Assembly: GCA_020697715.1 (NCBI GenBank)
Contig: JAEHCO010000001.1
Coordinates: 2,222 to 66,221, forward strand
Source: Methanobacteriota archaeon
Lineage (GTDB): Archaea > Thermoplasmatota > Thermoplasmata > SG8-5 > JAGLSY01
Direction of reading: 5' to 3'
DNA: 64,000 bases
The position numbers and the translations under genes are program-made. The notes under the pieces were generated by a model, which searched no databases, was not told the origin of the DNA, and saw only the letters and a program-made list of their open reading frames with translations. Positions 15,739 to 63,953 of the stretch are shown here, one piece after another. The first letter of the stretch is position 1, and every line of letters begins with the position of its first letter.

Positions 15739-15743
15739 TTAAA

Positions 15744-18047: not shown

Positions 18048-18051
18048 CTCC

Positions 18052-20025: not shown

Positions 20026-20101
20026 TTAAACATCTCCGATTCCTTCCTATCTATCTCTCTCGGGACTCCCGAAAAAAAGAAAAGGAAGGGCACTAGCTAA
20101 G

Positions 20102-32415: not shown

Positions 32416-35400
32416 TTAAGAAATGTCTGGCTCCCCTTGCCCTTCAGCCTCAACCTCAATTTCAGCATCTGGCTCTGGAGATCCTTCCACACCCTCCGGC
32501 TTTCCACCACTTCCACCTCTGGTGAATCCAATAACAGCCAGCACACCCATAACGACAGCCGCGATGACCGCGCCCCAGGCCCATGCCGGGGTCTCGATGA
32601 CCGTGTCCTGTGTGGATGGATCGGCGGTGCCATTATTCCAAACAGTTGTATTATGATATTCTGGAATTGTGTTATTGGCCCATTCGGTCGTGTTGTGGTA
32701 TTCTGGAATTGTCTCATTGTTCCATATTGTTTGATTGTGATACTCTGGAACTGTCTCATTGTTCCAGATGGTCTGATTGTTGTACTCTGGAACTGTCTCA
32801 TTGTTCCAGATGGTCTGATTGTTGTACTCTGTGACAATGAGGAAATCAGAATCCATGAAATCCGCTATGCCGTCATTGTCATCGTCTGGTGGAAGATCAG
32901 TGTCATCCAATGGGTCAAATCCACCTGCAATTTCGACTGCATCGTCCCAGTTATCATTGTCATCATCATCATCCACCGAATCGTCAATTCCATCGCCATC
33001 ATTATCTGATACCATTGTCGGATCAAGTGGGAAGTCATCAGAGGTATCTGGAGTGCCGTCATTGTCATCGTCCAGGTCTGTGGTGTCCGGTTGACCGTCA
33101 TTGTCTGTATCCAGATCCACAGTAAGGGTGAATATCCGGGTGTCATTGGCACCGTTCCCATCATCAACTGTGACCTCGACATTGTAGATACCTGCCTGCG
33201 CATTGTTGGGTGTTCCGGACAATATTCCGTCATTGTCTATTGAAAGCCAGCCTGTGACATTACCGGACAGGTTCCAGGTCGTGGATGGGTCATCTGTGGA
33301 ATCATAATCGACCGAGTACAATGCTCCAGTGTTGGTGCTCGGAACATCTGGGGTTGTTATACTGGGGCCCATGTTCTCCACATCGAAGGTGTAATTATAG
33401 AAGCCTTGGTGGCCCACAGGATCCGTGGCCGTGATATTTGCATAGTATGTGCCTACATCCACGTTCAAAGGAGTTCCAGATATTACTCCAAATGAGGATA
33501 TGGACAGCCAGCCTGTGGCATCGGTTTCCAAGCCCCATTGCATCATGCCAGATCCAGGAAGAGGTTGAAGGGCTGAATCAAAAACGATCATGTAATTTGA
33601 ATCTTCAATAGCCGTGTCCATCATGGTCACTTGCCCTGTCGAGATAATTGTGGAGAACGGAGTCAGGTATGGGTATGAAGTGGTCTCCATAATGCCCCAG
33701 ACATTTGTGAAGTTCCATGGCGGGTTGAATGTCGCTTGCTGCTTCATCTCAGCAGTGGTCTTACCAGTTGCACCAGTAAGTCCGCCAGCGCCGATTCCTA
33801 TTCCTGTTACAGAAGTGTCGGTATCCCAAAAACAATCTATGATAGCGCCAGAATTGTTATATCCGGCAAAGCCACCCGAATTGAGATTACCGATTGCCCT
33901 ACCTGTGCTGTAACAATTCTTTATCGTGCCAATGCCCCATACATATCCTGTGAATCCACCAACCCGGTCATTACCAATAGCATTTCCCATGCTGTAGCAG
34001 TTCGCGATGATACCGTGGTTCTGTCCTGAAAAACCACCAACATATTCAATTGTTCCAATAGAGCTCCCAGTACTGTAGCAGGCAGTGATCGATCCAACTT
34101 CATTGATACCCACAAAACCACCAACATAACTATCTGTTCCAGTTGCACCCCCTGTGCTGTAGCTTGCCGTTATCGGTCCTTCGTTCCATCCTACAAAACC
34201 ACCAATATACATATGTCCACTGGCACTACCTGTGCTGTAGCAATTTGTGATCGTGCCGACATTGGTCATAAACCCCGCGAAGCCCCCAACATAATCAAAA
34301 ATTCCTGTGGCACTGCCAGTGCTGTAGCAATTTGTGACCTGGCTATTATCAATATATCCAACGAAACCACCAACATACATATCTCCATTTACAATACCGG
34401 TGCTGTATGAGTTTATGATCGTGCCGCCAATATTAAATCCAACGAAGCCGCCGACATAATGATCGATCGATGTGGCATCTCCTGTGCTGTAGCAGTTAGA
34501 GGCGGTATTGCCATTAAGACCGATGAAGCCGCCGACATTGTTAGCACCGCTGGCATCTCCTGTGCTGTAGCAGTTAGAGACGGGATTGCCATTAAGACCG
34601 ATGAAGCCACCGACATGATCATCACCACTGGCATTGCCAGTACTGTAGCAGTTAGAGACGAGATTGTTATTAAGACCGATGAAGCCACCATAATAATCTC
34701 CCGATGCAAAAGAGATGGCATTGCCGGTGCTGTAGCAGTTTGTTATAGTGCCACTGTTACTTCCTGTGAATCCTCCTGCATAATCATCGACCCCATTGGC
34801 ATCTCCCGTACTATAGCAATTTATTATGTCTGCCTGATTTTGGCCTACAAAGCCTCCTGTATACTCAACTGCGGTTGACGTGCCAGTACTGTAGCAATTG
34901 GAGATATTACCTACAAAATTAAGTCCTACAAATCCACCAGCGGTCCATGAGATACCATTTACAGAACTGGTACTGTAGCAGTAAGTGATAGTGCCACCAT
35001 TATTTGTTCCAACAAGCCCGCCAACATCAAAGATTCCAGTTACGTATCCTGTGCTGTAACAGTCAGTGATCGTGCCCATATTTCTTGCAACCAAGCCTCC
35101 AACAGTATCTTGGCCATCTATATCTGAATTGTTCAGGCCAATGCCAGTTAAGCTGGCTGTTTCGCTGATAATGCCAAAGAGGCCAACTTGATCTGTGGTG
35201 GAACGGTTTATTATCAAATTAATTATTTCAAAGCCCTGGCCATCCAGAGAGCCATTGAACTTCGATGTGGTATTACCAATTGGTGTAAACCCTGCGCCAG
35301 AATCCCAGATATTGGTAATTGTGGCATCGATATCATTGCCCAATACGTAACTTGCATTCATGTCCAAGCGTATGTAATACAAATCAAGAACATCCTCCAC

Positions 35401-35610
35401 AATGTAAGGGTTGCCAATACTACCATCTCCACCACCGAAAGCTCCTCCGGCAAGTGGGACAGGGCCGGGAACAATTTCCTCACCCTCTACATTCGCGGTC
35501 ATATCCAGCATCACAAAAAGTGAGCTGAGAACTAGCATAGAACTGATAATTAATGTGGCTGTTTTCTTCATGATATCATTTCCCCTATCAATGTGAGGGA
35601 AATGCACCAT
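32416..35610 (-). CDS. Giant surface protein, paralog of 28649-32359 (GLUG repeats, Ig-like, TSP3-like repeats, sequon stalk, TM anchor)
   Basis: 1064 aa; same architecture and near-identical C-terminal module; downstream flank ATAATAACATTTCCGTAATATTGTTAAG duplicated after both paralogs. Confidence 0.75.
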   Translation of the reverse strand: MVHFPHIDRGNDIMKKTATLIISSMLVLSSLFVMLDMTANVEGEEIVPGPVPLAGGAFGGGDGSIGNPYIVEDVLDLYYIRLDMNASYVLGNDIDATITNIWDSGAGFTPIGNTTSKFNGSLDGQGFEIINLIINRSTTDQVGLFGIISETASLTGIGLNNSDIDGQDTVGGLVARNMGTITDCYSTGYVTGIFDVGGLVGTNNGGTITYCYSTSSVNGISWTAGGFVGLNFVGNISNCYSTGTSTAVEYTGGFVGQNQADIINCYSTGDANGVDDYAGGFTGSNSGTITNCYSTGNAISFASGDYYGGFIGLNNNLVSNCYSTGNASGDDHVGGFIGLNGNPVSNCYSTGDASGANNVGGFIGLNGNTASNCYSTGDATSIDHYVGGFVGFNIGGTIINSYSTGIVNGDMYVGGFVGYIDNSQVTNCYSTGSATGIFDYVGGFAGFMTNVGTITNCYSTGSASGHMYIGGFVGWNEGPITASYSTGGATGTDSYVGGFVGINEVGSITACYSTGSSIGTIEYVGGFSGQNHGIIANCYSMGNAIGNDRVGGFTGYVWGIGTIKNCYSTGRAIGNLNSGGFAGYNNSGAIIDCFWDTDTSVTGIGIGAGGLTGATGKTTAEMKQQATFNPPWNFTNVWGIMETTSYPYLTPFSTIISTGQVTMMDTAIEDSNYMIVFDSALQPLPGSGMMQWGLETDATGWLSISSFGVISGTPLNVDVGTYYANITATDPVGHQGFYNYTFDVENMGPSITTPDVPSTNTGALYSVDYDSTDDPSTTWNLSGNVTGWLSIDNDGILSGTPNNAQAGIYNVEVTVDDGNGANDTRIFTLTVDLDTDNDGQPDTTDLDDDNDGTPDTSDDFPLDPTMVSDNDGDGIDDSVDDDDDNDNWDDAVEIAGGFDPLDDTDLPPDDDNDGIADFMDSDFLIVTEYNNQTIWNNETVPEYNNQTIWNNETVPEYHNQTIWNNETIPEYHNTTEWANNTIPEYHNTTVWNNGTADPSTQDTVIETPAWAWGAVIAAVVMGVLAVIGFTRGGSGGKPEGVEGSPEPDAEIEVEAEGQGEPDIS
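32657..32840 (-). repeat. In-frame 42-bp tandem repeat (about 4.4 copies, two identical) encoding 14-aa double-sequon units (PEYHNQTIWNNETV)
   Basis: Units start at 32657, 32699, 32741, 32783, 32825; 32741-32782 is identical to 32783-32824. Confidence 0.8.
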
Positions 35611-44915: not shown

Positions 44916-46472
44916 ATGGCTGAGACACTCACCATACTGAAAGGCGTCAGTATAAATGATGACGGCCAGGTATCCATGGATCTCAGAGAATGGAGCATTG
45001 AGGATATCGTATCCACCATGAGCAAGGTGTTCGATTCGCTGATCGCGGTCTCCGCTATCACCAAAGGTGATGAAAAGGCCTACCTGGAAGCGGATGATTC
45101 CGTAATGAGGATAAAAAATCAATTCAAGTCCCAATTTGTCTCACTTGGCATAGAGAAGCATATCCTGAAGGGAGGTTTGAGATCCCATCTGGACGTGGGA
45201 ATTGAAGGAGCGGATAAGGTATTGGGGGGAGGGATCCCCAAAGGCAATACCATATTATTGCTCGGACCACCTGGAAGTGAGAAATACTTATTCGCATACC
45301 AATATATAATCCAGGGACTGAGGGATGGAAGTGCATGTCTTATCAGCACATCGGTCACTGACCATAAAGGAATGAAGAACAATCTTTCAAAGTTGAAGAT
45401 CAAGCCATCCACATTCGAGGGCCAGGGATTATTGAAGACCATCGACTGGTATTCTTATAAGAAAGAAAATCTGGTGGGTGTGGAGGATGATGGAAATGTT
45501 TTCAGAGCGTCCAAGGACATAACCAATCTTGATATCGCGATAGGATCGGCTGTCAACAAGCTCTCCTTTGCCCCGACAAAAAGAGCGATGCTGGATATAA
45601 TATCACCAGCACTCAATATCTATGATCATTCCATGGTCATAGAGTTCGTTCAAAAGGAGAAGAACCTATTGAAGACTAAGGGCTTCACGACACTTCTGGT
45701 GGTTGAGAGCGGAGCTCATGATGAAAGAACATTGTCCACTCTTAAACATCTTTCAGACGGTGTGTTGATTATCGAGAAAGGCAGCAAAGGCCAGCTTACA
45801 TTCAAAGTAGAAGCTTTATCTGGCATGAAGTTCGACCAGAAGGCCCATCGCATCAAGGTGACCAAGAAAGGTCTGGAGATCATTTCCAATGTGAAGGATG
45901 AAAGCTCCATATTACAGGATCTGCAAGAAATACCAGCGATTGACAAAATAACAGCAGAAAAACTTATCGAGGCTGGCTTCACCAGCATGGAAAAATTGGA
46001 AAAGGCGAAGAAGTCGGAACTGGAAAGTGTTACAGGCATTGATGCGAATGTGTCCAATAAGATCTACGAATACATACATTCTGTAGAATATTCAAAGAAG
46101 ATAATAGAGAGAAAGAGCCAGAACTGGGTAAGGAAAGGATTGCAATTCATTGGTAAAAAAGAGATAGACAAGGGAATGCAAAGTTTCCAGAGGGCGATAG
46201 AGATCCACCCCAAGAACTCAAGTGCGTGGCTGGAGATGGCCAGGCTTCTTTACAATGAAGGTAGCAAAGATGATTCCAGAAAATGCTTTGACAAAGCTTT
46301 GGAGATCGATCCCACATTGGCAAAAGAATGGTTCGATAAGACCGAGGTACAGGAAGCTGGATGGGGCTGTCCCGTATGTGGGTTCTACATAAAGGAAGAA
46401 AATATCGAATGCCCTGAATGTGGTGTCATATTCAGTGTTGAAGAAAGAGAGAGCCAGAGGGATCAAATATGA
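44916..46472 (+). CDS. KaiC/RecA-like domain protein fused to helix-hairpin-helix, TPR and C-terminal zinc ribbon
   Basis: 518 aa; KaiC-like core (GIEGADKVLGGGIPKGNTILLLGPPGSEKY) with atypical P-loop lacking GK[ST]; HhH (IPAIDKITAEKLIEAGF…VTGIDANVSNKI); TPR-like pair; CPVCG…CPECG; start uncertain. Confidence 0.65.
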   Translation: MAETLTILKGVSINDDGQVSMDLREWSIEDIVSTMSKVFDSLIAVSAITKGDEKAYLEADDSVMRIKNQFKSQFVSLGIEKHILKGGLRSHLDVGIEGADKVLGGGIPKGNTILLLGPPGSEKYLFAYQYIIQGLRDGSACLISTSVTDHKGMKNNLSKLKIKPSTFEGQGLLKTIDWYSYKKENLVGVEDDGNVFRASKDITNLDIAIGSAVNKLSFAPTKRAMLDIISPALNIYDHSMVIEFVQKEKNLLKTKGFTTLLVVESGAHDERTLSTLKHLSDGVLIIEKGSKGQLTFKVEALSGMKFDQKAHRIKVTKKGLEIISNVKDESSILQDLQEIPAIDKITAEKLIEAGFTSMEKLEKAKKSELESVTGIDANVSNKIYEYIHSVEYSKKIIERKSQNWVRKGLQFIGKKEIDKGMQSFQRAIEIHPKNSSAWLEMARLLYNEGSKDDSRKCFDKALEIDPTLAKEWFDKTEVQEAGWGCPVCGFYIKEENIECPECGVIFSVEERESQRDQI

Positions 46473-52122: not shown

Positions 52123-52527
52123 TCATTTCTTATATTTGTGGATCAACATCTTGTCCCAGTCCACATCATTCTCAAAGCCCTTGCTTTTCAGATATCGACT
52201 CATGGACTCGGTGACCCTGGCCACTTCCAATGACTTGGCTGAATGGTAATGTCCGTAGATGTACATCTCCAGGTCATCTGATTCTTCCTGGATCGGGAAT
52301 ATCATTCTCATGCGTCCCTGGCGATTGTAACCTTCTGGCTTCTTGTTCTTTTCCAGATCGATGAGGTTCTCCTTTATCATCATATTGACCACCTCTTCCT
52401 CTTCGGGTGTCTGGTCCGTGTCCTCCAGGAACTTGAGGTACATCTCTGAGAATATAGGTGTGAAGTCCTTGTATTGCACACCCTTGTCAAATTTTATGTG
52501 TCCGCTTCTTACTTTCATATTGATCAC
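52123..52527 (-). CDS. Hypothetical small acidic protein
   Basis: 134 aa ORF downstream of pilin gene; no recognisable family. Confidence 0.4.
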   Translation of the reverse strand: MINMKVRSGHIKFDKGVQYKDFTPIFSEMYLKFLEDTDQTPEEEEVVNMMIKENLIDLEKNKKPEGYNRQGRMRMIFPIQEESDDLEMYIYGHYHSAKSLEVARVTESMSRYLKSKGFENDVDWDKMLIHKYKK

Positions 52528-52649
52528 TTTTCTATACTATCCAAAATAGGATGGAGTGATATTTAATGGTTGTGGCTAAGAATTCGAATGTGTTATTCGG
52601 ATCAGAAATGAGAATAATAATAATAATAATAAGTAAAGAGGAACAAGCA

Positions 52650-52695
52650 GAGAAGGATAATAAAAAAGAGAAGATTTGCGGGTCCGAAGACCCGC
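52650..52695 (-). terminator. Hairpin (GCGGGTC-CGAA-GACCCGC) followed by T-rich tract, terminator of pilin gene
   Basis: Perfect 7-bp stem with tetraloop at 52678-52695, 30 nt downstream of pilin stop; T-rich run on gene strand. Confidence 0.5.
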
Positions 52696-52724
52696 ATTAA
52701 CTTAGTTGATTAGCGATAGCTGGC

Positions 52725-53231
52725 TTACATATTCAGTAAGCTGCCGCCGCTCATCTGGATCTCTTGTCCGTCTAGGTCGACTATTGTAATTTCGTATTCA
52801 CCAGCCTGTGCGTTTGCCCAGGTCAATGTTACGTAGTCTCCACTGTTTATAAGAGAGTTGGCTCCGATATCAGTTGCTACTGCAGTGATATCCTGTCCAG
52901 CGCCAGATTTTGCAACAGAAATTGCTGTTGGCGGATTGGCATCAAACGATAATACATAACTAGTGGAATTAACACCAGCTATTGTTATTGTTATGTCTGT
53001 CCATTCGATATCTGTGCTGAACGATCCGAACTTCATTGTTGCGGTTGTTGAAGAGTCCTTATCGAGCTCTGACCAGTTTCCTGTTGCAGCTACACTGCCT
53101 CCACCGCCAAAGTCCATGACCATGACGTAAAGCACAGCAGCCAAAACCACGGTGATAGCGACCATCAAAATGGTAGCAATAACCGGAGACACTGCGTCGT
53201 CCTTCTTTCTTATATTCCATGTGTTTTTCAT
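52725..53231 (-). CDS. Archaeal type IV pilin-like protein (class III signal peptide)
   Basis: 168 aa; N-terminus MKNTWNIRKKDDAVSPVIATILMVAITVVLAAVLYV matches the prepilin-peptidase-processed motif; beta-rich Thr/Ser-rich C-terminal domain. Confidence 0.65.
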   Translation of the reverse strand: MKNTWNIRKKDDAVSPVIATILMVAITVVLAAVLYVMVMDFGGGGSVAATGNWSELDKDSSTTATMKFGSFSTDIEWTDITITIAGVNSTSYVLSFDANPPTAISVAKSGAGQDITAVATDIGANSLINSGDYVTLTWANAQAGEYEITIVDLDGQEIQMSGGSLLNM

Positions 53232-53367
53232 ATATTTTGTCCTCCTGTAGACTATAAGCCTACGTAATTATAGATTACAAGGACAATATATTTATAGTTT
53301 TCTCAAAATAATACGGCAATCAACGTATATACATACGGCAAATACCGATGCATTGTGCCTCAAAGGA

Positions 53368-54120
53368 TCATATGTTCTTTGCGGATATACCCTTATCATC
53401 TATGTTGCATGATAAGATCTTAGTTTTCTCTGGGTGATTCCTCACCTTCCTTATCAGCAGATTCCTTGTGAAAGTGGAGCCCTCTCTGAGCCTCTCCAGT
53501 TCTATTGTGATATCCACTATATCCTGGACACCACTTTCCACGCGATTGTCAAAAACCCCTTTCAGCATCGTGACGAGGGCTATGCCATTATTTAGTTGAG
53601 TATGAGCCTTGATGGTCCTTATGGCGGAAAGCACATCAGCCTCATCATAATACTCTAGGAAGAAATCCAGAGAATCCAATACGATCCTAAATGGTGGTTT
53701 GAGCTTCGATATACCATATGTGAGCGTGGTCAGGAAATTGACATCCATGCTTTGTTCAGCCTGGGCGGCATTGAATTGCTTGATATCTCGCATTTTCAAT
53801 CCTTCCTGGCGATACTTGCTAACTTCCAGGTTCTTGGCCAGAACCTTCTCATAATACATCTTGCCGATATTCACGACCCTGATATCCTGCTTCCACCCGA
53901 ATTCACCCATGGCGGTCTTAACAGCCTCATCACTTTCAGTGGTGGAGAAATAGGTAACGTTCTCATTTCCTATTCCAGCTGCTGCAAACTGCTTGGCAAA
54001 TAGCTCGACACCGGTTCCGGGTATACCGGTGATCAATATCGTACATCCTTTCGGAACACCATCCATCAGGGATTTATCCAGCTCCTTCACACCTATGCTG
54101 GTAGTTTCGATCAAACTCAT
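53368..54120 (-). CDS. KaiC/RecA-like ATPase domain protein (third of triad)
   Basis: 250 aa; P-loop-like GIPGTGVELF (non-canonical) and KaiC-type fold; 4-nt overlap with upstream gene. Confidence 0.7.
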   Translation of the reverse strand: MSLIETTSIGVKELDKSLMDGVPKGCTILITGIPGTGVELFAKQFAAAGIGNENVTYFSTTESDEAVKTAMGEFGWKQDIRVVNIGKMYYEKVLAKNLEVSKYRQEGLKMRDIKQFNAAQAEQSMDVNFLTTLTYGISKLKPPFRIVLDSLDFFLEYYDEADVLSAIRTIKAHTQLNNGIALVTMLKGVFDNRVESGVQDIVDITIELERLREGSTFTRNLLIRKVRNHPEKTKILSCNIDDKGISAKNI

Positions 54121-54689
54121 TCACCCCCTATGGTTATCGTGGTATCACATACCAACTTCATCATATTGGATATCTCTTCAGTGCTGAACTCTTCCATTGT
54201 GAAGACCATGGAATAGGCATCCTTGGCTCTCAGATTGTTTATGAATATATGCAAGAATTCGGACAGGATCTTCATATTATTGTGAATACCCAGGGCATTT
54301 ATGGCATCTAAAACAATGACATTGTTCTTGCCATCTGATTTCCTTATGAGGTATTCCACCTTCAGCATGATGTTCTCCAGCATGGTGGGGCTTTCCACAT
54401 AGAGCACGTTCTTGTATTTCTTGGCCCCTCCGACCATGATATGGGAAACACAGTCCACGAAGTAAATATTGGTAAGATCGATCTCCAGGATCTTCAAGAC
54501 ATCGATTATTGAATGTGATGGAATAGCCACCGTGATGTAGATGACATTCAAATTCTTCTTATTGGCGAAGATATCCACTATTCCCCTTATGGCATCGAAA
54601 TAACTATCACTGACTATCTTCAGGTTTATAGCGGATGAAGGTGGGAGCTCATGAAGCTCATCTGCCAGATCGCCAGGTGATTTGATCAT
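54117..54689 (-). CDS. KaiC/RecA-like fold protein lacking recognisable Walker A (second of triad)
   Basis: 190 aa; matches C-terminal part of KaiC-like fold (NVIVLDAINALG) without P-loop; 4-nt overlaps on both sides. Confidence 0.5.
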   Translation of the reverse strand: MIKSPGDLADELHELPPSSAINLKIVSDSYFDAIRGIVDIFANKKNLNVIYITVAIPSHSIIDVLKILEIDLTNIYFVDCVSHIMVGGAKKYKNVLYVESPTMLENIMLKVEYLIRKSDGKNNVIVLDAINALGIHNNMKILSEFLHIFINNLRAKDAYSMVFTMEEFSTEEISNMMKLVCDTTITIGGE

Positions 54690-55438
54690 AGACCACCACC
54701 GCCCTTGAGCAATGGAACAAGTAATACGCCCGCGGGTGTCAGATCCAGAACATATTTCGCTCTGGAATGTACTGTTCCTCTCATTTTCACCACTTGCAAT
54801 GTCCTCAGAAGGTCTCCCCTCCGCTCATAATTCCCCATAAGGACGATACCATCCGCGATGGCTTCCTCCACCCCGTAGAGCGAGTACCTGTCGGCAGATG
54901 GTGATATTTCGGATATCAGAAGACTGGTGCAACCCCTGGTAGAAAGAGCTTTTCCTATCTTCAATATGAATTCCCTTATCTTCTCCTCTGTTTTCAATCT
55001 GTAGCAAACGGAGGTTATGGAATCTATGACCAATCTTTTGACAGAAAGCTCATCCACGAGGTTACCCAGTGCACGAACCAGAGTGTCGACATCCTCCAGA
55101 CTGAACTCCACATTTGTCAAACCCAATCTCTCATAGATGACTGGCATATCGACGAATGCCAGTTTTCCTGTTTTTATCAGGGATTCCTCAAAGAAATCAT
55201 ATGGGATGACATTCGTGGTAAGTTTCTCAGATGATTCTGTAACTGAAACAAAAAGTGAATTCTCATCGGCCAGAGCCCCATGCACTAAAAATTCAAGGGA
55301 CAGTGTGGTCTTTCCAGTACCGCAACTGCCTGTGAACAAAATGGTATTTCCTCTGGGTATTCCTCCATTTAGAATATTATCCAAACCATCTATTCCTGTA
55401 ACGCAACGTTCTCTCTCAATGATATTTTCTGAGGCCAT
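54686..55438 (-). CDS. KaiC/RecA-like ATPase (first of triad; canonical Walker A)
   Basis: 250 aa; GIDGLDNILNGGIPRGNTILFTGSCGTGKTTL Walker A, Walker B (RLVIDSI), KaiC-type C-terminus. Confidence 0.75.
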   Translation of the reverse strand: MASENIIERERCVTGIDGLDNILNGGIPRGNTILFTGSCGTGKTTLSLEFLVHGALADENSLFVSVTESSEKLTTNVIPYDFFEESLIKTGKLAFVDMPVIYERLGLTNVEFSLEDVDTLVRALGNLVDELSVKRLVIDSITSVCYRLKTEEKIREFILKIGKALSTRGCTSLLISEISPSADRYSLYGVEEAIADGIVLMGNYERRGDLLRTLQVVKMRGTVHSRAKYVLDLTPAGVLLVPLLKGGGGL

Positions 55439-55591
55439 GATTTCCGTTCTCCAATATAGCTAACCATATTTTAATCATTTGCATAAGGATGGATTAATTT
55501 GTAATTACCTGCAAATCTATTTATAAGTCTTAACAGATATATAAAAAACTGTCCATAACATCAAGCAGACATCAAGTAGGAGACTGGCACT

Positions 55592-58500
55592 TTGAGCGAT
55601 TCCACACTTTACCTATGCCCATTTTGTGGCGCCTTCATAAACGAGGAGGCCGAGGTTTGTCCCAATTGCAGCAAACCATTGGAAGAGGAGGTGGAAGGTG
55701 GATTCGAGAAAGAGCTGGATGATCTTATAGATGAAGATCTCAATGCCATGTCAGGAAGTGAATCCTGTCCCAGATGTGGAAAGCAGCTGGAAGAAGGATC
55801 ATTAGAATGCCTGGATTGCAATATGAAGATCGAGGATGGACTGGAACCCGCATCTGAAGGAGAAGAGGAAGGAGTGGCTCTATTCCTTTGTTCAGGATGT
55901 GGGGCTTTTATCAATTCGAATTCCAATGAATGCCCCAAATGTGGTATTTCACTTGATGATGAGGCTGAAGAAGAACATGATTTTGTAGAATATGATAATG
56001 AATTGCTGGATCTCCTTGTTGAGAATGAGCCAGATGAAGAAGATGAGCTTATCCTGGAGTTGGATAGCATAGATGATCCAGAAGATCTGATATCGGTCAT
56101 TGACAAGATGCCGGATATTGAAGATGAAGAGCTATTCGATGATGAACCAGATATCGTACTTGATCTTGATCTGGCAGATGACGATCCGGAAGGCGATCTT
56201 CTTCACATGAACATTGATGATGAAATAGAGAAGACCAGGATAGTGGAATCCATTAGCGAAAGGGTAGCCGGAGAAGTGGCTATCGAAAGTGATAGTGGAG
56301 ATGAGATCATGCTCTGTGGAGAGTGTGGAGCATTTGTCTCCCAATCTTCAAAGGAATGTAATGTTTGTGGAAATGACATAAGACCTGGCAGCCATCTGGC
56401 TATTGAAAAAGATGAGATCCCCTCAGAGAATGATGGCGAAAATACAGAGACCGCCCTGAGGTCCATACTTGGGATATTGGATGATGTCATACTTGATCCG
56501 GATCCAATGGCAGATCATGAGGATGATATTGGCATATGCCAGAAATGTGGAGCTTTCATACCTCATGGCGAGAGTGCGTGTCCCGTATGTCATGCGGACA
56601 AAAAGAGTCTTCCAGATATCATATACACGGAACTGCCTATAGATGATCATGATTCTATGTCCATTTGCGGGGATTGTGGAGCTTTTGTCAAATCCGATTC
56701 AGATACATGTAATGTTTGTGGAGCCAAGGTCGATGCCGATATGCTAAGATCCATAGAGCCAGATGATGTCTTGGAGATGGGGATGGATGCGGATGACCCA
56801 ATGGATATTCTGAAAAAAGCACTGGGTGTGCTGGAATTACGAGATACGACACCAGAGGAAAGGATCGGTGGAGAACTGGATCTATGTCCGGATTGTGGTG
56901 CTTTCGTCTCAGCTAATGCCAAATCATGCTCCATTTGTGGCAGCGATCTGATCCAGGGCACGGATATAAGCCTGGATGATGGCATAGTCATGGATCTGGA
57001 TGATGGATCGGTCATTCTTTCAGACAGTGTTTGTCCCAATTGTGGCTCCAAGTTCGGGGTCGGGGCAGGAGATTGTGAGGTTTGTGGCTTCACATTCCTC
57101 GGTGATGAAAGTGATCATGACGAGAAGGAAATGTCCTATGAAGACAGGGTGGACATATCGGATATCATAGAATTCGAGGTTCCAGAATTGACAAAGGAAA
57201 GCGCTATCGATCACCTCAATGAAATGGAAGATGATATGGATGATCTAATTCTGGATGAAGTAAAGCCTGAATCATCTGCCGAGGTTAAGAGTGGGGAACT
57301 ATCCAATGAAGAAAAGCTGGCCAGGATAGAAAAGGCCTATGAAGAAGGGCAACTTAGCAAGGCCAATTACATAATCAACAAGGCCAAGTTCTACGGACTT
57401 GTTCAGGAAATGAATGAGATAGAAGATGACCTGGATGAGCTTTTGATAGATATTGATGAGACGATGGCCGAGACCGTGGAAGTGCCGACCGAAGAGGATG
57501 AAATAGAAAGTCTGGAGCTTGGAGATCTTCATCTGAATATCGATCCAGATGCTCAGGACGACGAGGATACCCAGCCAGATGTGGAAATGGAATATGATGA
57601 TCTGTCCCTTTCAGAAGATGACATCAAAGAAGGCATCCATGACGGAAAATATGATGATATCATCGAATTCGATGATCAGGATCTGGATCTAACCCAGGAT
57701 GATACTTATCAGGAAGATCTGGATGAGCATATTGAAACTTATGAGGAAGAGGATGAGACCTCGAAAGAGGATGAAACCTCGGATGAGGATGTCATATACG
57801 AAGAGGTCGAGGTCTATGTGGACGAAGATGGCCAGGAAATAGAATATGAAGAGGTCGAGGTAAATGAGGATGACATCGAAGAGTATGAGGAGGATGTCGA
57901 TGATCCTGAAGGAACCGATTTAGATGATCATGACCCCGAGGAAACATATTTCGAAGAGGAAGACGAGATCCATGTACCCTTCAGATCACATGCCATGGCG
58001 GAGACCACTGGAGGACCGCAATATCTCAATCATTCCGGATGGGAATATGGTGTCATCGCATCACTTCTTACATCCCTCTTCTATGTCGCGCTTTCCTCAT
58101 ACATACCCATCAATCCCATATCATTGGCCATAATATTTGGCGTGATACTTATCTTCGCCTTCATAATGATGGTCACATCAAGATCCATATTCATGAAAGG
58201 CGATCTGTACCGTGGTTCCGTGTTCATGATAGGCGGAGTGATAATTTCTTTCATCCTGCTCCATTGGTTCGCGGATATCATGATCGATGATCCGATGGTG
58301 GACAAAATGCTACTGTCGATAGGAATAATGATGATCGGTATAGGAATAATCTGGATAAGGGGCAAGATCCGATATATCCATCTCTGGTTATCCGGCACCA
58401 TATTCCTATTTCTGTTCTCCATAGGAGAGCTTTATTATTTCGAGCAATGGGCCTATTCCCCCATCCAGCCACCAGGAGCGATAGTGGCTGGGATCGGGAT

Positions 58501-59152
58501 ATCTCTGATCGTGGCCAGTTCCATACTGCTGGCCTATGAGAGAAGTCTACACACTTCGATAGAGACGGAGATCGTTCGAGGAGATATGGACTATCTCAAT
58601 AAGAATTACAAGAAGGCATTGCATTCCTATGATAGGGCGCTTGAGAAAAGCACCCTGAAGACCGAATCCGCATTGAAGGCAGATGATACCAGGGAATACG
58701 ATGTCCCATGGTACAGTAAAGGTGCGACCCTGATATTGATGGGTAATTTGAAAGAAGGAATTGAATGTCTGGATATGGCTCTATCCATAAATCCCAATAA
58801 CGAGGTCGCATGGGTGAGCAAGGGAAATGCCTATTCAAAGCTCGGGGACATGAGCAGTGCTTTGGAATCATATAACAATGCATTGATCGCGAACCCCAGA
58901 TACATAATAGCCTGGAACAATAGAGGTAATGCATTTGCCAGGAAGGAGAATTATATCGAAGCCCTGAAGAACTATAACAGGGCGATCAAGCTGGATCCAG
59001 ATTATAAGGACGCGTGGATCAATAAGGGCTATGTCCTGATGAAGATGGGAAAGCAGGATGAGGCGCTCAAATGTGTGTCGATGATAGGGGAGAAAAAGAT
59101 GGGACAGCATGGAGCAGCCAGTACCAATGGCAGTACTAAGGCCTCTGCCTGA
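55592..59152 (+). CDS. Giant membrane protein: eight N-terminal CxxC-N(9-11)-CxxC zinc ribbons, acidic linker, about six TM helices, C-terminal TPR repeats
   Basis: 1186 aa, TTG start; ribbons such as CPFCGAFINEEAEVCPNCSKP, CSGCGAFINSNSNECPKCGIS, CGDCGAFVKSDSDTCNVCGAK; hydrophobic block (…VIASLLTSLFYVALSSY…); four or more 34-aa TPR units. Confidence 0.7.
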   Translation: MSDSTLYLCPFCGAFINEEAEVCPNCSKPLEEEVEGGFEKELDDLIDEDLNAMSGSESCPRCGKQLEEGSLECLDCNMKIEDGLEPASEGEEEGVALFLCSGCGAFINSNSNECPKCGISLDDEAEEEHDFVEYDNELLDLLVENEPDEEDELILELDSIDDPEDLISVIDKMPDIEDEELFDDEPDIVLDLDLADDDPEGDLLHMNIDDEIEKTRIVESISERVAGEVAIESDSGDEIMLCGECGAFVSQSSKECNVCGNDIRPGSHLAIEKDEIPSENDGENTETALRSILGILDDVILDPDPMADHEDDIGICQKCGAFIPHGESACPVCHADKKSLPDIIYTELPIDDHDSMSICGDCGAFVKSDSDTCNVCGAKVDADMLRSIEPDDVLEMGMDADDPMDILKKALGVLELRDTTPEERIGGELDLCPDCGAFVSANAKSCSICGSDLIQGTDISLDDGIVMDLDDGSVILSDSVCPNCGSKFGVGAGDCEVCGFTFLGDESDHDEKEMSYEDRVDISDIIEFEVPELTKESAIDHLNEMEDDMDDLILDEVKPESSAEVKSGELSNEEKLARIEKAYEEGQLSKANYIINKAKFYGLVQEMNEIEDDLDELLIDIDETMAETVEVPTEEDEIESLELGDLHLNIDPDAQDDEDTQPDVEMEYDDLSLSEDDIKEGIHDGKYDDIIEFDDQDLDLTQDDTYQEDLDEHIETYEEEDETSKEDETSDEDVIYEEVEVYVDEDGQEIEYEEVEVNEDDIEEYEEDVDDPEGTDLDDHDPEETYFEEEDEIHVPFRSHAMAETTGGPQYLNHSGWEYGVIASLLTSLFYVALSSYIPINPISLAIIFGVILIFAFIMMVTSRSIFMKGDLYRGSVFMIGGVIISFILLHWFADIMIDDPMVDKMLLSIGIMMIGIGIIWIRGKIRYIHLWLSGTIFLFLFSIGELYYFEQWAYSPIQPPGAIVAGIGISLIVASSILLAYERSLHTSIETEIVRGDMDYLNKNYKKALHSYDRALEKSTLKTESALKADDTREYDVPWYSKGATLILMGNLKEGIECLDMALSINPNNEVAWVSKGNAYSKLGDMSSALESYNNALIANPRYIIAWNNRGNAFARKENYIEALKNYNRAIKLDPDYKDAWINKGYVLMKMGKQDEALKCVSMIGEKKMGQHGAASTNGSTKASA

Positions 59153-62100
59153 CCTGCATGATGCATATTCCGATCATGGTTGCCAGGATCAATGAGAAGA
59201 TATTACTGAACTCGTCAATAATGATTATATCGACCGATGCCACATCACTATCCGGCAGAAGCATGTAGCCACTGGAAGTAGTGTAATTCAATAGTGCCCA
59301 ATTATCAACAGGGCCAGCAAGTGGCGTCGCATTGACTGTCACATTGATGAATATCGCGTATGAGCCGGGCGCGATATTTGTGAAGTACCAGCTAATATCC
59401 TGACCCAGTATTGTCGAAGGAGCTGGAACCGCGCTGTCGAAGATAATTCCAGAGGGTAATGTGTCATTTATCCAGACATTGCCCGCATTGGTCGAGCCAG
59501 TATTATTGTAGAAGATGGTGTACATGATGGTGTCATTGGCATAGGCGGTTGTGACATTGGCGGTCTTCTGGATATCTATAACAGGCCGCTGGCAGGTGAC
59601 ATTGGCCCATGAGGTCTCGGTTCCCAGAGAGTATGTCAAAGTGGCGGAATTGGATAATAATTCCAGATCGGTCGCATTGGCATTCACCTGCACCTCGATG
59701 GTTATGAGATTCGTACTCTGTCTGGGAATCTGGGTGAAGGTCCAGCCAAGATCCTGGCCAACTATCGTCACGGGCAATGGATTGGCGACCACATAATCGA
59801 CATTCGCTGGAAGTACATCATCTATCTGAACATTCCAGGCCTTTCCCAAACCTGTATTATTGTACCATATCTCGTAGGTTATCAGATCGCCTGGTTGGGC
59901 AGTGGTCACATTGGCTGTTTTGGATATGGACATATTGGGGAGTTTAGGTGCCAGTGGATCAATGGGGTCAGAAAGCTCTATTTCTTCTAGCCCAGTCGAT
60001 CGGGATGACCTTGCGGCCTCGGCATTGTGCCTGATACTATTGGTCTCATCCTCCATACCCAGCCAGTCTGACATTTCGATGGCGATGGAGATATCAGATT
60101 GCCTGGATATTCCAAGAAGTCCAAGGGGCACGCCTACCTCAATCCGGGATAGATCATTGGCCCCGGATGCTTTGCCGAGATATGTCCATGGAGTGCTCGC
60201 GGACATCTCCTCATATGAGTATATCTCGCTGGATAGTATCTTATTGTATTTGCCAGTTATAAGGATTAAATGGTCAGCTCCAAGCTGACCATTTAAATAA
60301 TGGCCTGTTTCGATATCATCATCCGCGTCTATGTATATCAACAGATGATCCATACCTTTTCTCTCAATGTGCCTCACAGGGCCGATATAACGGCTTATGA
60401 ACCTGCCAGAATAATTCGCATCATAGCTCTGGGGGATGGTGGTATTGAGCCAATTGTCAACACCTCCAGCATCGTGATCCACTACACCGTCGCCATCACG
60501 ATCCCCATTAGAATTCGCATCATCGACACCGTCATTATTAAAATCATGAGCATATGAGCCATCAGGGCCATCCAGCACATCCGGGACACCATCATTGTCC
60601 GAGTCCAAATTAGGAGAAGTCTGAGTGACATTTTGAGCCGATGGTGTTGATCTGATCCTCAGCACTGGTATTGCGGATCCTCCCATGGCCACCCCACCCA
60701 CGGATGTGTAGATGTTCAGCTCATCATCCATATTCATGCGGTAATCCCTGATATCCACATTCCTGTTCAGGAACTTCAGCTTTGCAGGATCCTTTCCTGG
60801 AACTACCTGATCATTGGCCGCATCGATATTTGGAGGTGTCGATTGCCAGTCTCCAAATGCTCCATCTATCGTCGTACCAGATGGTTGGCCATAGTGTTTG
60901 AGAGATGGTGCACTTACTATCATGTCCAAGTTGACGGTGTCGATCATGCCCACATTCAAAGGCATGAGGCCGATGGTCTGGCCATTCTCTGTCCCGGTCA
61001 ATGTGGATGAAAGAATAAGTTGAGTGATTTCAGACGGCGATAGTGGCATGGGGTCGAATAATTCCAAATGAAGGACCTGGCCGTCCACCTGCATCGAGGA
61101 TAGGCCAACCACCTCGTCAATGACAGGTTCTATCAGGCCATTATCATTCATATCCTTGTATAATGTGAATTGTGAAAGAATATCCGGACTGGATGTTCCC
61201 AATATACGGAAGTCGAGTGAGTCGATCTCCACCTCATCCTCATAGCATACGAGTTCGAAGGAGCAAGAGAGAACATCATCTCTTGCCAGTATATCATTCG
61301 AAGGGTCAGTGATCGACCTTATAGACAGGGATGCGGTATTGGGGATCATTATGCCATCGGAAGTGTCTGTATTTCCTTCGGAATCACTTGTCATGACAAG
61401 GACTGATGGTGACTGGTCTGCCAGATCGCTCATGGCCGTTCTCAGTTCGATCTTATCTCCACTCACCTTACTGGATACCGAGGATATATACATGAACCCA
61501 CTCCAGTCATCAGGATCATGATCATTATCGAATCTCAATAGTTCAGATGCTTCCACATGATTATCATAACCATGAACATCTATCAGGACATCGGCGCCCA
61601 GATTGTCGATGGAATAGCCAGTGCGATTATTCCCATCTGCATCTAGGAAGATATAGATGGAATCCACACCACTGCCATTCGCACTACCACCTTCCATCAT
61701 GGTCCCGTCAACTTGTAGGAAAATGTCAAGATATGGATGATCCAATGAAAATCTAGTATCTACCAGATCTATATCAGGGTTTATGACATCCGATACTTCA
61801 TCGGCATAGGATGTGAACTTATTCCAGTCACTGAAAGCTCCGTCTATCGAGATATCTCGTGTGTCACCATTATTCATATTCTCGGTGAATATCGGCACAT
61901 AGAGTATCAAAGATATCACAATGACAATGGATAAAAAGCCGATCTTCCACCTACGTGCTTTTTGACGATTCCTTCTCAATATAGCCATATCCTGCTTTCT
62001 CTCAACCAAGGAATCACCATTTATGAAACCATCGCCATTAACTATGCCAGAGCCGTTGACCAGGCCATTCGTTAACCCATTGGTCAAGCCATTGGTACGA

Positions 62101-63953
62101 CCTTGACCATTTGTGATTCCATTCGTCCTACCCTGCCCATTCGTTAACCCATTGGTACGGCCTTGACCATTGGTGAGACCGTTCGTTCTTCCCATACCAT
62201 TTGTAAGGCCGTTCGTCCTACCCTGGCCATTAGTTAATCCATGGGCACCACCTTGACCATTGGTCAAACCATTTGTCCTACCTTGACCATTGGTAAAGCC
62301 TTGAGCATGACCGAATTTCCTTCTCATCTTTTCAGAAAGTTCAAGATCATTGGAATGGGATATCTTCTCGGCATCCACATCGTATACCAGAGAATCCAAT
62401 ATGGACTCCAATTCTTCTTCCGTATAGTCCTCTTCTTGATCGTCCACACACTCATCCTGATCGATGACCTCGAATGACTGGTCATCATCATCGTCCTCAT
62501 CATCTAAATCAAATTCAAGGGAATCAAGAAGATCCTGCATCTCTTCATCTGACTCGACCTCATCCATATCCGTATAGCCCAATTCCAATGGATCTTCAAT
62601 TATCTCTCCATCTAAACCGAAAATAATGGGAGTTGGAGCAGTATCCGGCTCATCAGTCTCATCAAGATCAAGAACAAGAGATTCGAGAAGATCGTCCATG
62701 TCTTCATCTGGCTCATCTTCAAGGATTAGCTCGGGTTCATGTTCAATATCATCTTCAAACTCTTCACCCTCAAGATCCAGACCCAATTCTGCCAGGTCGT
62801 CCAATCCATCCAATTCCAATAAGAGCCAGTCCTCTTTGAATGCCTCATCAGAGCCCTGGTCAAGATCAGATATATCGTCATCATCGTGCTCGACCACCTC
62901 GATCCTTTCCAGCTCTTCATCCTTCAATTCCAATAATTCCAGGGAGAACATCTCGTCCTCCAATTCAGCCATTTCAGATCTGAGGATATCGTCCTTCATC
63001 ATGCCCTTCTCTTCGATCTCCATCTGCTTACAGTTCGGGCATGAACTGGAATCTCCCATAACGAAGGTGCCGCAGGACTCGCAGACCGTGAACCCTATGG
63101 TTGGAACTGTCTCGAGAAGGTCTATTTCCTCTTCAGGGTCCTCATCCGGTTCATCCAGCTCCCTGGATAATACCTCATTCACTTCCTTGGACAGGACATT
63201 CACATCTCCGATCTCATCCTCCAGATCACCCAGGGAATTGATGATGGCCTCATCCAGCTTGAATTCCTTCATGTCTATGACATCGTCACAGTTCGGACAG
63301 CTTTCTGCCCCACTGCCCAGGAATGCTCCACAGGATCCGCATATACCAATATCTAGATCCGGGGCGGTCTCAAGCCTATCCACCTCTGGTTCATCCACCA
63401 GGTCCATTTCCAATATCTCATCGATCTCGGAAGATAGCATCTCGCCACATTTGGGACACGTGTCCACATCCCCCTCCACAAATGTCCCGCAGGAACTGCA
63501 CATTTGGAAATCGATCTCCGGTATCGTCTCAAGGAGATCGTCATGCTCATCTGCCAGTTCATTGCCCAATGCTTCTGCGGTGATATCTTGACTGAATATC
63601 TCACCACAGACCCCGCAATCCTCGGATATGGAGCTGATCAATGCACCACAACTCGAGCATCTGGATAATATCTCATCAGTTACATCATCCTCATCTTCCT
63701 CCACCGTGGTGTAACATATTGGACAGACCGCACTGTGCTCGTTCAGAAATGCTCCGCAGTTCCCACATAGGTAAAATTTGATATCAGCAGCATCTTCGCC
63801 AACTGAAAGCCCCAGGAAATTGATTATGTTCTCGATCGCGCCTTTCTCATCCAAGATAAGATCCGAGGTCGAAATACGAGTGCCAGTAATGGAGCCGACA
63901 TCGACTGGCTGACCCAATTGAACATGCATCCGATTCACAATATCATGGTTCAC
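59136..63953 (-). CDS. Giant membrane/surface protein: five or more N-terminal zinc ribbons, acidic region, GxTNG decapeptide repeats, TM, about 1000-aa extracellular region with DUF11-like repeat domains, C-terminal TM
   Basis: 1605 aa from GTG start; reading frame stays open upstream to the window end, so the N-terminus may be truncated; ribbons CGNCGAFLNEHSAVCPICYT etc.; repeats GLTNGQGRTN about nine times; domains TANVTTAQPGDLITYEIWYNNTG and TANVTTAYANDTIMYTIFYNNTG. Confidence 0.7.
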   Translation of the reverse strand: MNHDIVNRMHVQLGQPVDVGSITGTRISTSDLILDEKGAIENIINFLGLSVGEDAADIKFYLCGNCGAFLNEHSAVCPICYTTVEEDEDDVTDEILSRCSSCGALISSISEDCGVCGEIFSQDITAEALGNELADEHDDLLETIPEIDFQMCSSCGTFVEGDVDTCPKCGEMLSSEIDEILEMDLVDEPEVDRLETAPDLDIGICGSCGAFLGSGAESCPNCDDVIDMKEFKLDEAIINSLGDLEDEIGDVNVLSKEVNEVLSRELDEPDEDPEEEIDLLETVPTIGFTVCESCGTFVMGDSSSCPNCKQMEIEEKGMMKDDILRSEMAELEDEMFSLELLELKDEELERIEVVEHDDDDISDLDQGSDEAFKEDWLLLELDGLDDLAELGLDLEGEEFEDDIEHEPELILEDEPDEDMDDLLESLVLDLDETDEPDTAPTPIIFGLDGEIIEDPLELGYTDMDEVESDEEMQDLLDSLEFDLDDEDDDDDQSFEVIDQDECVDDQEEDYTEEELESILDSLVYDVDAEKISHSNDLELSEKMRRKFGHAQGFTNGQGRTNGLTNGQGGAHGLTNGQGRTNGLTNGMGRTNGLTNGQGRTNGLTNGQGRTNGITNGQGRTNGLTNGLTNGLVNGSGIVNGDGFINGDSLVERKQDMAILRRNRQKARRWKIGFLSIVIVISLILYVPIFTENMNNGDTRDISIDGAFSDWNKFTSYADEVSDVINPDIDLVDTRFSLDHPYLDIFLQVDGTMMEGGSANGSGVDSIYIFLDADGNNRTGYSIDNLGADVLIDVHGYDNHVEASELLRFDNDHDPDDWSGFMYISSVSSKVSGDKIELRTAMSDLADQSPSVLVMTSDSEGNTDTSDGIMIPNTASLSIRSITDPSNDILARDDVLSCSFELVCYEDEVEIDSLDFRILGTSSPDILSQFTLYKDMNDNGLIEPVIDEVVGLSSMQVDGQVLHLELFDPMPLSPSEITQLILSSTLTGTENGQTIGLMPLNVGMIDTVNLDMIVSAPSLKHYGQPSGTTIDGAFGDWQSTPPNIDAANDQVVPGKDPAKLKFLNRNVDIRDYRMNMDDELNIYTSVGGVAMGGSAIPVLRIRSTPSAQNVTQTSPNLDSDNDGVPDVLDGPDGSYAHDFNNDGVDDANSNGDRDGDGVVDHDAGGVDNWLNTTIPQSYDANYSGRFISRYIGPVRHIERKGMDHLLIYIDADDDIETGHYLNGQLGADHLILITGKYNKILSSEIYSYEEMSASTPWTYLGKASGANDLSRIEVGVPLGLLGISRQSDISIAIEMSDWLGMEDETNSIRHNAEAARSSRSTGLEEIELSDPIDPLAPKLPNMSISKTANVTTAQPGDLITYEIWYNNTGLGKAWNVQIDDVLPANVDYVVANPLPVTIVGQDLGWTFTQIPRQSTNLITIEVQVNANATDLELLSNSATLTYSLGTETSWANVTCQRPVIDIQKTANVTTAYANDTIMYTIFYNNTGSTNAGNVWINDTLPSGIIFDSAVPAPSTILGQDISWYFTNIAPGSYAIFINVTVNATPLAGPVDNWALLNYTTSSGYMLLPDSDVASVDIIIIDEFSNIFSLILATMIGICIMQVRQRP
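62020..62310 (-). repeat. In-frame 30-bp tandem repeat (about 9 copies) encoding GLTNGQGRTN decapeptides
   Basis: Recurrent CCATTGGT…CCTTGACC units on plus strand at 30-bp period inside the giant gene. Confidence 0.6.

Follow-up and report, generated by a model that had tools for sequence, protein, structure and literature searches.

A three-gene KaiC-like module, with one predicted active and two predicted inactive ATPases, beside type IV pilin genes in Thermoplasmatota

KaiC-family genes of arCOG01171, arCOG01174 and arCOG01175 have been associated with archaeal type IV pilus (T4P) loci (Makarova et al., 2016; PMC4858521), and in Archaeoglobi genes of arCOG01175 and arCOG03793 are found beside FlaI, TadC and pilin genes or beside archaellum genes (PMC4858521 supplement). 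The former group is described as 'RecA-superfamily ATPase..., inactivated' and the latter corresponds to Pfam DUF835. Two precedents connect such proteins with filaments: the hexamer formed by the KaiC-like ArlH docks on ArlI (bioRxiv 10.1101/2021.03.19.436134), and in Haloferax volcanii deletion of the PilA pilins abolishes motility, a loss that is suppressed by mutations in the KaiC-like protein CirA (PMC10983859). KaiC-like genes are numerous in archaea, and for most of them no role has been established. This report describes a triad of such genes, called K1, K2 and K3 in transcription order, on the minus strand at 53368-55438 of a 64-kb window (the whole stretch of contig JAEHCO010000001.1 that was analysed, from an archaeon of the Thermoplasmatota). 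It is an unusually clean case of one live and two dead, equally constrained paralogs, and it is fixed beside rapidly evolving pilins across a whole class of uncultured archaea. The triad probably regulates pili and, in broad terms, belongs to a kind of module already known from archaea; it does not found a category of its own, since earlier catalogues list both KaiC-like genes and their inactivated relatives next to pilus loci of archaea.

The identity of the three parts can be assigned with very high confidence. K1 (55438..54686, 250 aa; the three genes and their motifs, the pilin gene and the stem-loop after it all lie on the minus strand) scores 186 bits on the Pfam KaiC model (PF06745; gathering cutoff 26.6) over residues 14-242, and its best sequence match in the Protein Data Bank (PDB) is KaiC itself (phmmer E 5e-54, residues 9-243), followed among archaeal single-domain proteins by matches to PH0186 (E 1e-40) and PH0284. 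An active ATPase of the RecA superfamily was defined by four features, namely the Walker A motif GxxxxGK[ST], a catalytic Glu behind strand 2, the Asp of Walker B and a trans-acting Lys/Arg finger, and all four are present in K1. The canonical Walker A noticed in the original prediction, GSCGTGKTT, occupies residues 37-45 (55304..55330) and reads GS[CV]GTGKT[ST] in all 78 orthologs that span the region. The arginine-finger motif, Lys218-Met-Arg220 (54779..54787), aligns with LKFRG/LKLRG of KaiC as the equivalent of KaiC K224/R226, and its Lys and Arg are both kept in 82/82 orthologs. Walker A, the catalytic Glu E68, the Walker B residue D139, E177 and K218/R220 do not vary in any ortholog that is complete at the site (78-82 of the 82 orthologs). 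Where KaiC-CII has its phosphosites S431/T432, K1 has Glu/Ala, as CI does (YGVEEAIAD), and its scores on the KaiC equivalog models are below cutoff (NF006799, 155.8 against 408 bits; TIGR02655, 107.6 against 546). K1 is a single-domain KaiC-CI-like ATPase that is predicted to be catalytically competent.

K3 (54120..53368, 250 aa) likewise aligns with the Pfam KaiC model, at 85.2 bits over residues 8-246, and does not pass the models of the inactivated KaiC-like families DUF7090, DUF7504 and DUF835 (gathering thresholds 27, 27 and 33.1 bits). It had been noticed for a non-canonical Gly-rich loop, which is found as GIPGTGVE, without Lys or Thr, at residues 32-39 (54004..54027). The loop follows the pattern G-x-P-G-x-G-[TVIL]-[ED] in 51 orthologs: the Walker Lys is absent from all 51, being replaced by Thr, Val, Ile or Leu, and in place of the Walker Thr/Ser 49 have Glu and the other 2 Asp. 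With both residues replaced throughout, K3 falls outside the active RecA-superfamily ATPases and should not bind Mg-ATP normally. Other catalytic positions are largely retained. A trans-acting Lys225-Val-Arg227 (53440..53448) aligns with K218/R220 of K1 in the profile alignment, K225 being conserved in 51/51 and R227 in 50/51 orthologs; the catalytic-Glu position (E62) is kept in all 51, and the Walker B position is Asp in 41 and Asn in 10. In addition, a conserved helical insertion spans roughly residues 85-138 of K3; Y90, R104, N128 and P142-P143 are among the invariant positions. There are 462 K3 homologs in the database, and K3 itself is, by its motifs, a predicted full-length KaiC/ArlH-like pseudo-ATPase.

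The truncated K2 (54689..54117, 190 aa) scores 23.6 bits on the Pfam KaiC model, below the cutoff of 26.6, and also remains below threshold on DUF7090 (23.3 bits) and DUF835 (12.9 bits). K2 had no BLASTP match to K1 or K3 and no match among PDB sequences, and its profile alignment with K1 was not significant (hhalign probability 1.9%). Its KaiC/RecA fold was settled by fold comparison and not by sequence, so the relationship of the three genes to the RecA fold, supposed in the original prediction, holds for K1 and K3 by the KaiC model and for K2 by fold. Among 32 members of the K2 family, 25 match DUF7090, 13 match DUF7504 and 15 match DUF835 at E <= 0.01, and distant matches of the K2 profile score above the DUF7504 cutoff; on these profile scores, K2 is placed as a sister or outlying subfamily of DUF7090/DUF7504/DUF835. 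No GxxxxGK[ST] occurs anywhere in K2, as had been claimed. The lost P-loop corresponds to residues 26-32, where secondary-structure order and the hhalign register place a short loop, SDSYFD, with invariant Y30, F31 and D32; the catalytic-Glu position is Ser, Ala or Val, and the protein ends before the beta-hairpin region that bears the Lys/Arg finger. The sole catalytic-motif residue left is the invariant Walker-B-like Asp D128, which puts K2 too outside the active ATPases. Another stretch, IYITVAIPSHS, was considered as the P-loop site and rejected, as the hhalign register and the strand/helix order of the model place it at strand 2, in the catalytic-Glu region.

The K2 family has private invariant motifs (YFD, VESPTMLEN and IHNxxKILSEFxH) and 816 homologs in the database, all of about 190 aa; an exhaustive profile search extended this to 1258 representatives at E <= 1e-3. 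Some domains of K2 type form the very C-terminal end of large TPR/SNAP-like/CARDB proteins, others are arranged in tandem, with a second copy or with DUF835, and others again are stand-alone proteins that score on DUF7504. A stand-alone copy of the last type (locus L087, 4079..5425), from outside the Thermoplasmata, directly follows an active KaiC-like ATPase and precedes a SepRS-like gene with no pilin nearby, and a stand-alone K2-like protein in locus L088 (1255..3424) ends a HAMP - V4R - K2-like gene string, again outside any pilin context. Since such distant copies sit by a KaiC ATPase or by HAMP/V4R genes, a live KaiC beside a P-loop-less KaiC-like domain appears to be a recurrent signalling arrangement. 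No fusion of K1 with K2 of the 'Rosetta stone' kind was found among the distant K2-profile matches, which held only tandem dead domains and fusions with TPR, Ig and DUF835 domains. K2 looks like an adaptor module.

The original prediction had read the triad as one active ATPase with two pseudo-ATPase partners and graded P-loop integrity, and both ideas are borne out by the motif counts in 82 K1, 82 K2 and 51 K3 orthologs. At the Walker A, Walker B and arginine-finger positions, K1 has every residue expected, K2 keeps the Walker-B Asp only and K3 keeps the finger and, in most orthologs, the Walker-B Asp. The gradation is real and, being evolutionarily fixed across orthologs, no quirk of the window sequence.

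The depth of conservation was established from a species-representative genome scan for K2 relatives, which found them in 192 species-level Thermoplasmatota genomes and retrieved 80 loci, and from annotated related loci, one of them reached through a 98%-identical K2 homolog (P0001), as a look-up of the exact K1 sequence gave no record. The K2 and K3 homologs come from Thermoplasmata/Thermoplasmatota metagenome-assembled genomes (MAGs). K1 and K2 are adjacent in 81/81 loci, and K3 follows K2 in 51 of the 70 loci where this can be determined. The three consecutive open reading frames (ORFs) overlap in the window by 4 nt at each junction, exactly as originally reported: both overlaps are ATGA, at 54686..54689 between the K1 stop and the K2 start and at 54117..54120 between the K2 stop and the K3 start, the latter preceded by a Shine-Dalgarno-like GGGGGTGA. 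ATGA is the commonest overlap type in prokaryotic operons, so the exact 4-nt overlap is unremarkable, and it is not conserved in orthologous loci (11/81 K1-K2 and 8/50 K2-K3 junctions). The tightness of the junctions is conserved, with spacings of -8 to +7 nt at 80/81 K1-K2 junctions and -14 to +10 nt at 50/50 K2-K3 junctions. All three genes are tightly coupled in an operon.

They are also under strong purifying selection and are not decaying. In the closest genome (JAEHCQ010000004.1, SF.bin11; locus L086) the DNA of the K genes is 82-89% identical, and the K1, K2 and K3 proteins are 98%, 97% and 91% identical, respectively; the ratio of nonsynonymous to synonymous substitution rates (dN/dS) is 0.026 for K1, 0.025 for K2 and 0.044 for K3, so that selection holds the two pseudo-ATPases about as tightly as it holds the live enzyme. 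The same data dispose of the idea that the triad is a single gene, such as a multi-domain KaiC, split by frameshifts of sequencing or assembly. The tight 4-nt overlaps are its sole support, together with the fact that breaks do occur: in CP070767.1 (L001/L036, at about 6212..6982 in L036), a MAG in the form of a complete chromosome, the K1 ortholog is split into ORFs of 148 and 90 aa by a pseudogenisation or an assembly error, with K2, K3 and three pilin genes intact. Three separate genes with their own starts and stops are, however, present in some 80 independent assemblies at spacings of -14 to +10 nt, a full KaiC domain can be aligned over the whole length of both K1 and K3, and dN/dS is at most 0.044. 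The broken-gene explanation is refuted, and frameshift artefacts as the origin of the overlaps fall with it.

What the original prediction, otherwise largely right, missed is the pilin context. Directly downstream of K3 lies a gene for a PilA-type archaeal type IV pilin (52725..53231, 168 aa), in which the class III signal peptide and the H-domain can be recognised (DA|VSPVIATILMVAITVVLAA); it scores 35.4 bits on Pfam Pilin_N (cutoff 25.2) and 51.1 on NCBIfam arch_flag_Nterm (cutoff 20), as an archaeal type IV pilin does. Between one and four pilin genes follow the K genes in 63/64 loci with downstream room, an adjacency confirmed by independent gene calls with Pfam Pilin_N. The other neighbours are lineage-specific, among them an OMP-decarboxylase (OMPdecase)/RraA fusion, a Peptidase_M50, an RDD protein and, elsewhere, a Tsr3-like gene, and clustering of the flanks yielded no extra conserved partner, only lineage-specific housekeeping neighbours and many spurious antisense ORFs. 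Because these other neighbours differ between lineages, the constant unit consists of the K genes and the pilins. The pilin itself evolves fast, with 47% amino acid identity to its counterpart in the closest genome and a dN/dS of 0.50. The pilin region 52578..53101 was hypervariable in comparison with 11588..13037 of L086, the locus of that genome, with no DNA match across the stretch, and L086 has a second pilin that is missing in the window.

Taken together, a lineage-wide Thermoplasmatota module of KaiC/RecA-fold paralogs directly upstream of PilA-type pilin genes, acting as a joint switch, is the preferred explanation, and it is held to be about as probable as its opposite. Its parts differ in strength. 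A functional link of the module to pili is fairly likely; that the K proteins form a hetero-oligomer at all is, from sequence, an evenly balanced matter. K1, K2 and K3 would be made together and would work as one cytoplasmic hetero-oligomeric switch, in which K1 would supply nucleotide binding and hydrolysis. Since K3 should not bind Mg-ATP normally and yet keeps its finger, it most plausibly packs on the K1 nucleotide site, where it could complete or sense the site by giving an arginine finger and/or a docking surface, for which its conserved insertion may serve; its role would be like that of the catalytically dead subunits of other RecA-fold hetero-rings. K2 would act as an adaptor or cap. 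The likeliest output would be control of type IV pilus biogenesis or of pilin-dependent signalling, by one of two possible routes: docking on a remote assembly ATPase of PilB/ArlI type, as ArlH docks on ArlI, a mechanism suggested by analogy and held to be less likely than not, or a CirA-like effect on expression. A more specific version, in which the oligomer is asymmetric, the sole catalytic sites are K1 P-loops completed by the K3 finger, K2 is the cap or adaptor and the whole reads the pilin pool or gates a remote assembly ATPase, is conceivable and, in that exact form, unlikely.

Several observations weigh against the joint pilus-linked switch. The K3-pilin intergenic region (53232..53367) contains a TATA-like AT-rich CTATAAATATA at about 53297-53287 and a GGAGGA Shine-Dalgarno sequence, and it is probably the pilin's own promoter. 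A scan of 26 of the largest other window ORFs, which took in neither three giant ones nor the small ones, turned up no PilB, TadC or prepilin-peptidase gene, and the annotated related loci showed none either; genes of T2SSE/T2SSF type, arlI, arlJ and archaellin genes were also absent near the triad in the same window ORFs and annotated loci. For want of these genes, pilin adjacency is all that ties the module to pilus machinery. (Pilin genes far from such machinery are known from the Thermoplasmatales: the cdiPA/B pilin genes of Cuniculiplasma are about 500 kb from the machinery operon; PMC12448462.) One locus with downstream room, L080 (CP070751.1, 6215..9213), has K1-K2-K3 and no pilin, and more distant pairs of K1/K2 type occur without pilins. 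K3 is missing from 19 loci, which form one nested clade and one divergent pair in a neighbour-joining tree of K1 and K2. K3 is therefore an accessory subunit that was probably lost at least once, and a complex of all three parts is not required. Nor is it obvious that K1, K2 and K3 could close into a ring, since K2 lacks the ring-contact and finger parts, and the invariant finger of K1 fits K1-K1 contacts, that is, a homohexamer. The locus without a pilin has in its place a nucleotidyltransferase gene, GalU-like by reading of the translation only, and CP070751.1 is labelled as a 5.16-Mb Thermoplasmata chromosome, which is unusually large.

Part of this evidence would suit a triad that serves as a generic hub of KaiC-type signalling and is functionally unconnected with pili, in which case the pilin adjacency would be synteny inherited within one class. 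Every locus belongs to the same phylum, the pilin looks separately promoted, the pilin-less cases just described exist, and another KaiC-domain protein is encoded in the same genome region. This last, a fourth such protein in the window (44916..46472, plus strand, 518 aa), scores 92 bits on KaiC at residues 94-325, continues with HHH_5 and C-terminal TPRs, and matches the K1 profile at E 1e-17 and the K3 profile at E 6e-16, which fits an expansion of KaiC-like signalling in the genome. Inherited synteny does not sit well, however, with flanks that change while the order of K genes then pilin holds in 63/64 loci, nor with its persistence despite a fast pilin turnover between one and four copies, and independent precedents tie KaiC-like proteins to T4P, archaella and PilA; a generic hub is judged quite improbable.

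The composition of the complex is less secure. K1 might be an ordinary KaiC-like homohexamer, with K2 and K3 as separate and possibly transient partners or output adaptors in the manner of KaiB/KaiA or of DEATH-like proteins. This is what a Lys/Arg finger kept in 82/82 K1 orthologs would predict for K1-K1 active sites; the single-domain archaeal PH0284 crystallises with six chains (2dr3), about a quarter of lineages do without K3, and domains of K2 type behave as modular C-terminal tags on unrelated large proteins. Against it, the conservation in K3 of the finger (K225 in 51/51 and R227 in 50/51) and of the P-loop Gly scaffold is hard to explain without canonical RecA-type packing, and the tight coupling of the genes suggests stoichiometric co-assembly. 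The homohexamer is accordingly regarded as rather doubtful, though as the nearest competitor in kind to a mixed assembly of K1 with its dead paralogs.

A third alternative concerns the function of the triad rather than its assembly. Several orthologs are labelled 'recombinase RecA' or 'RAD55 family ATPase' by NCBI, and the structural neighbours of the K proteins include SSO2452 (a RadA paralog), RadB, XRCC2/XRCC3/RAD51C and Psy3-Csm2, that is, heteromeric and partly inactive RecA-fold paralogs. The triad might on this basis be a recombination mediator of RadA-paralog (aRadC/RadB-like) type, comparable to BCDX2 or Shu and perhaps tied to pilus DNA exchange like the Ups system of Sulfolobus; the pilin gives a weak UpsA match (E 9e-4, 19 bits against a cutoff of 130). 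K1 is nonetheless far closer to KaiC (186 bits) and PH0186 (143) than to SSO2452 (67), RadA or RadB. Scores on RadA, RadB and RecA models range over 13-37 bits against cutoffs of 172-403, K1 itself reaching 29.8-30.5 on the RadB models (cutoffs 172-278), 13-20 on RadA (259-361) and 15 on RecA (325). No conserved DNA-repair genes were seen in the neighbourhoods examined, and the 'RecA' names are automatic annotation. A recombination mediator is highly improbable. The triad was also compared with models of anti-phage defence, with no meaningful match, and an anti-phage role is unsupported.

Around the module, the divergent intergenic region upstream of K1 (55439..55591) is AT-rich with TATA-like boxes and is presumed from its sequence to hold the operon promoter. 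Behind the pilin gene, a stem-loop with a T-rich tail (52677..52696) resembles a terminator. On the 3' side of the pilin, a 134-aa ORF (52123..52527, minus strand) has no Pfam or NCBIfam match; its DNA is 90% identical in the closest genome and it was not seen conserved farther out. The triad is flanked in the window by a Zn-ribbon/TPR membrane protein on one side and by LigT, an amino-acid-kinase-family (UMP kinase-like) protein and aRF1 on the other. The membrane protein (55592..59152, plus strand), divergent from K1, is 1186 aa long; its double-zinc-ribbon units, six or more in number, are spaced by long, acidic linkers of low complexity, and it also has a membrane region of several passes and TPRs at the C-terminus. 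L001, L003 and L005 likewise encode double-zinc-ribbon proteins at most some 6 kb away from the K module. Beside its gene lies an ORF of 1605 aa (59136..63953, minus strand), whose counterpart in L086 (154..5550) is 1798 aa and has no Pfam match. Farther away are an oligopeptide ATP-binding cassette (ABC) transporter cluster at 13604..23089 and a run of large surface-like genes on the minus strand: 26090..28591 (833 aa, WD40/PD40 beta-propeller and Ig-like), 28649..32359 (1064 aa, GLUG and He_PIG repeats) and the ORF 32416..35610 (1236 aa).

Compared with described families, none of K1, K2 and K3 is a bona fide KaiC, ArlH, RadA or RadB by its sequence. K1 is a straightforward member of the archaeal single-domain KaiC-like ATPases (PF06745, arCOG01171-type; PH0284/2dr3, PH0186/2zts and SSO2452/2w0m), with the full domain and motifs, and differs from them in being fixed in an operon with two inactive paralogs next to pilins. 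Cyanobacterial KaiC, its best match of known structure, shares the fold and catalytic motifs. A circadian KaiC is recognised by two tandem domains, Ser/Thr autophosphorylation sites in CII and a score above the equivalog cutoff, and it has KaiA and KaiB as partners, whereas K1 is a single domain with Glu/Ala at those sites and scores below that cutoff. The inactivated families (arCOG01175, arCOG03793/DUF835, DUF7504 and DUF7090) resemble K2 and K3 in combining the KaiC fold with the lack of a functional P-loop. In contrast to them, K2 is a tight family of its own, K3 passes the KaiC model and not the DUF models, and the inactive copies accompany an active paralog and pilins, with no assembly ATPase found.

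ArlH (FlaH) binds ATP and autophosphorylates via its catalytic Glu, while K3 has neither the Walker Lys nor the Walker Thr. On the ArlH/FlaH models NF052589, PRK06067 and PRK08533 (cutoffs 215, 194 and 215 bits), K3 scores 47.2, 54.3 and 15.8 bits (16-54 overall) and K1 35.6, 46.6 and 29.2 bits (29-47 overall), and neither the scanned window ORFs nor the annotated related loci gave any sign of an arl operon around the triad. The comparison with KaiC, ArlH and RadA profiles proposed in the original prediction thus ends with K1 and K3 passing the Pfam KaiC model and with the ArlH and RadA models below cutoff. CirA provides the experimental link between PilA-type pilins, whose H-domain the window pilin shares, and a KaiC-like protein bearing a Walker A (PMC10983859); it differs in being a single protein in the arl cluster, not beside pilins. 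The Elp4/5/6 ring and the Rad51-paralog complexes (BCDX2, Shu) are an architectural analogy only, as their biology of tRNA modification and recombination differs: sequence matches to either group stay below cutoff, in structure K2 and K3 resemble the KaiC-like proteins of archaea more than they do Elp proteins or Rad51 paralogs, and ancestry from Elp456 was rejected, all Elp matches being below cutoff and weaker than the archaeal KaiC-like ones.

In the searchable literature no description was found of the class-wide K1-K2-(K3) operon and its distinct K2 family, of the K3 pattern with Lys lost, Thr turned to Glu and the finger kept, or of the fixed position upstream of stand-alone, fast-evolving pilins. 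The assignments correct the names 'recombinase RecA' and 'archaellum biogenesis ATPase FlaH' that these proteins carry in databases. The module also offers a tractable system for the roles of pseudo-ATPase KaiC paralogs, for whether a finger-only dead subunit activates its live neighbour and for the control of archaeal pili with assembly genes at another site of the genome. If the asymmetric version of the oligomer is true, it would be a hard-wired, three-paralog counterpart of the control of type IV filaments by ArlH and CirA, and it would show in a prokaryote the 'one live, several dead subunits' design of Elp456 and the Rad51 paralogs.

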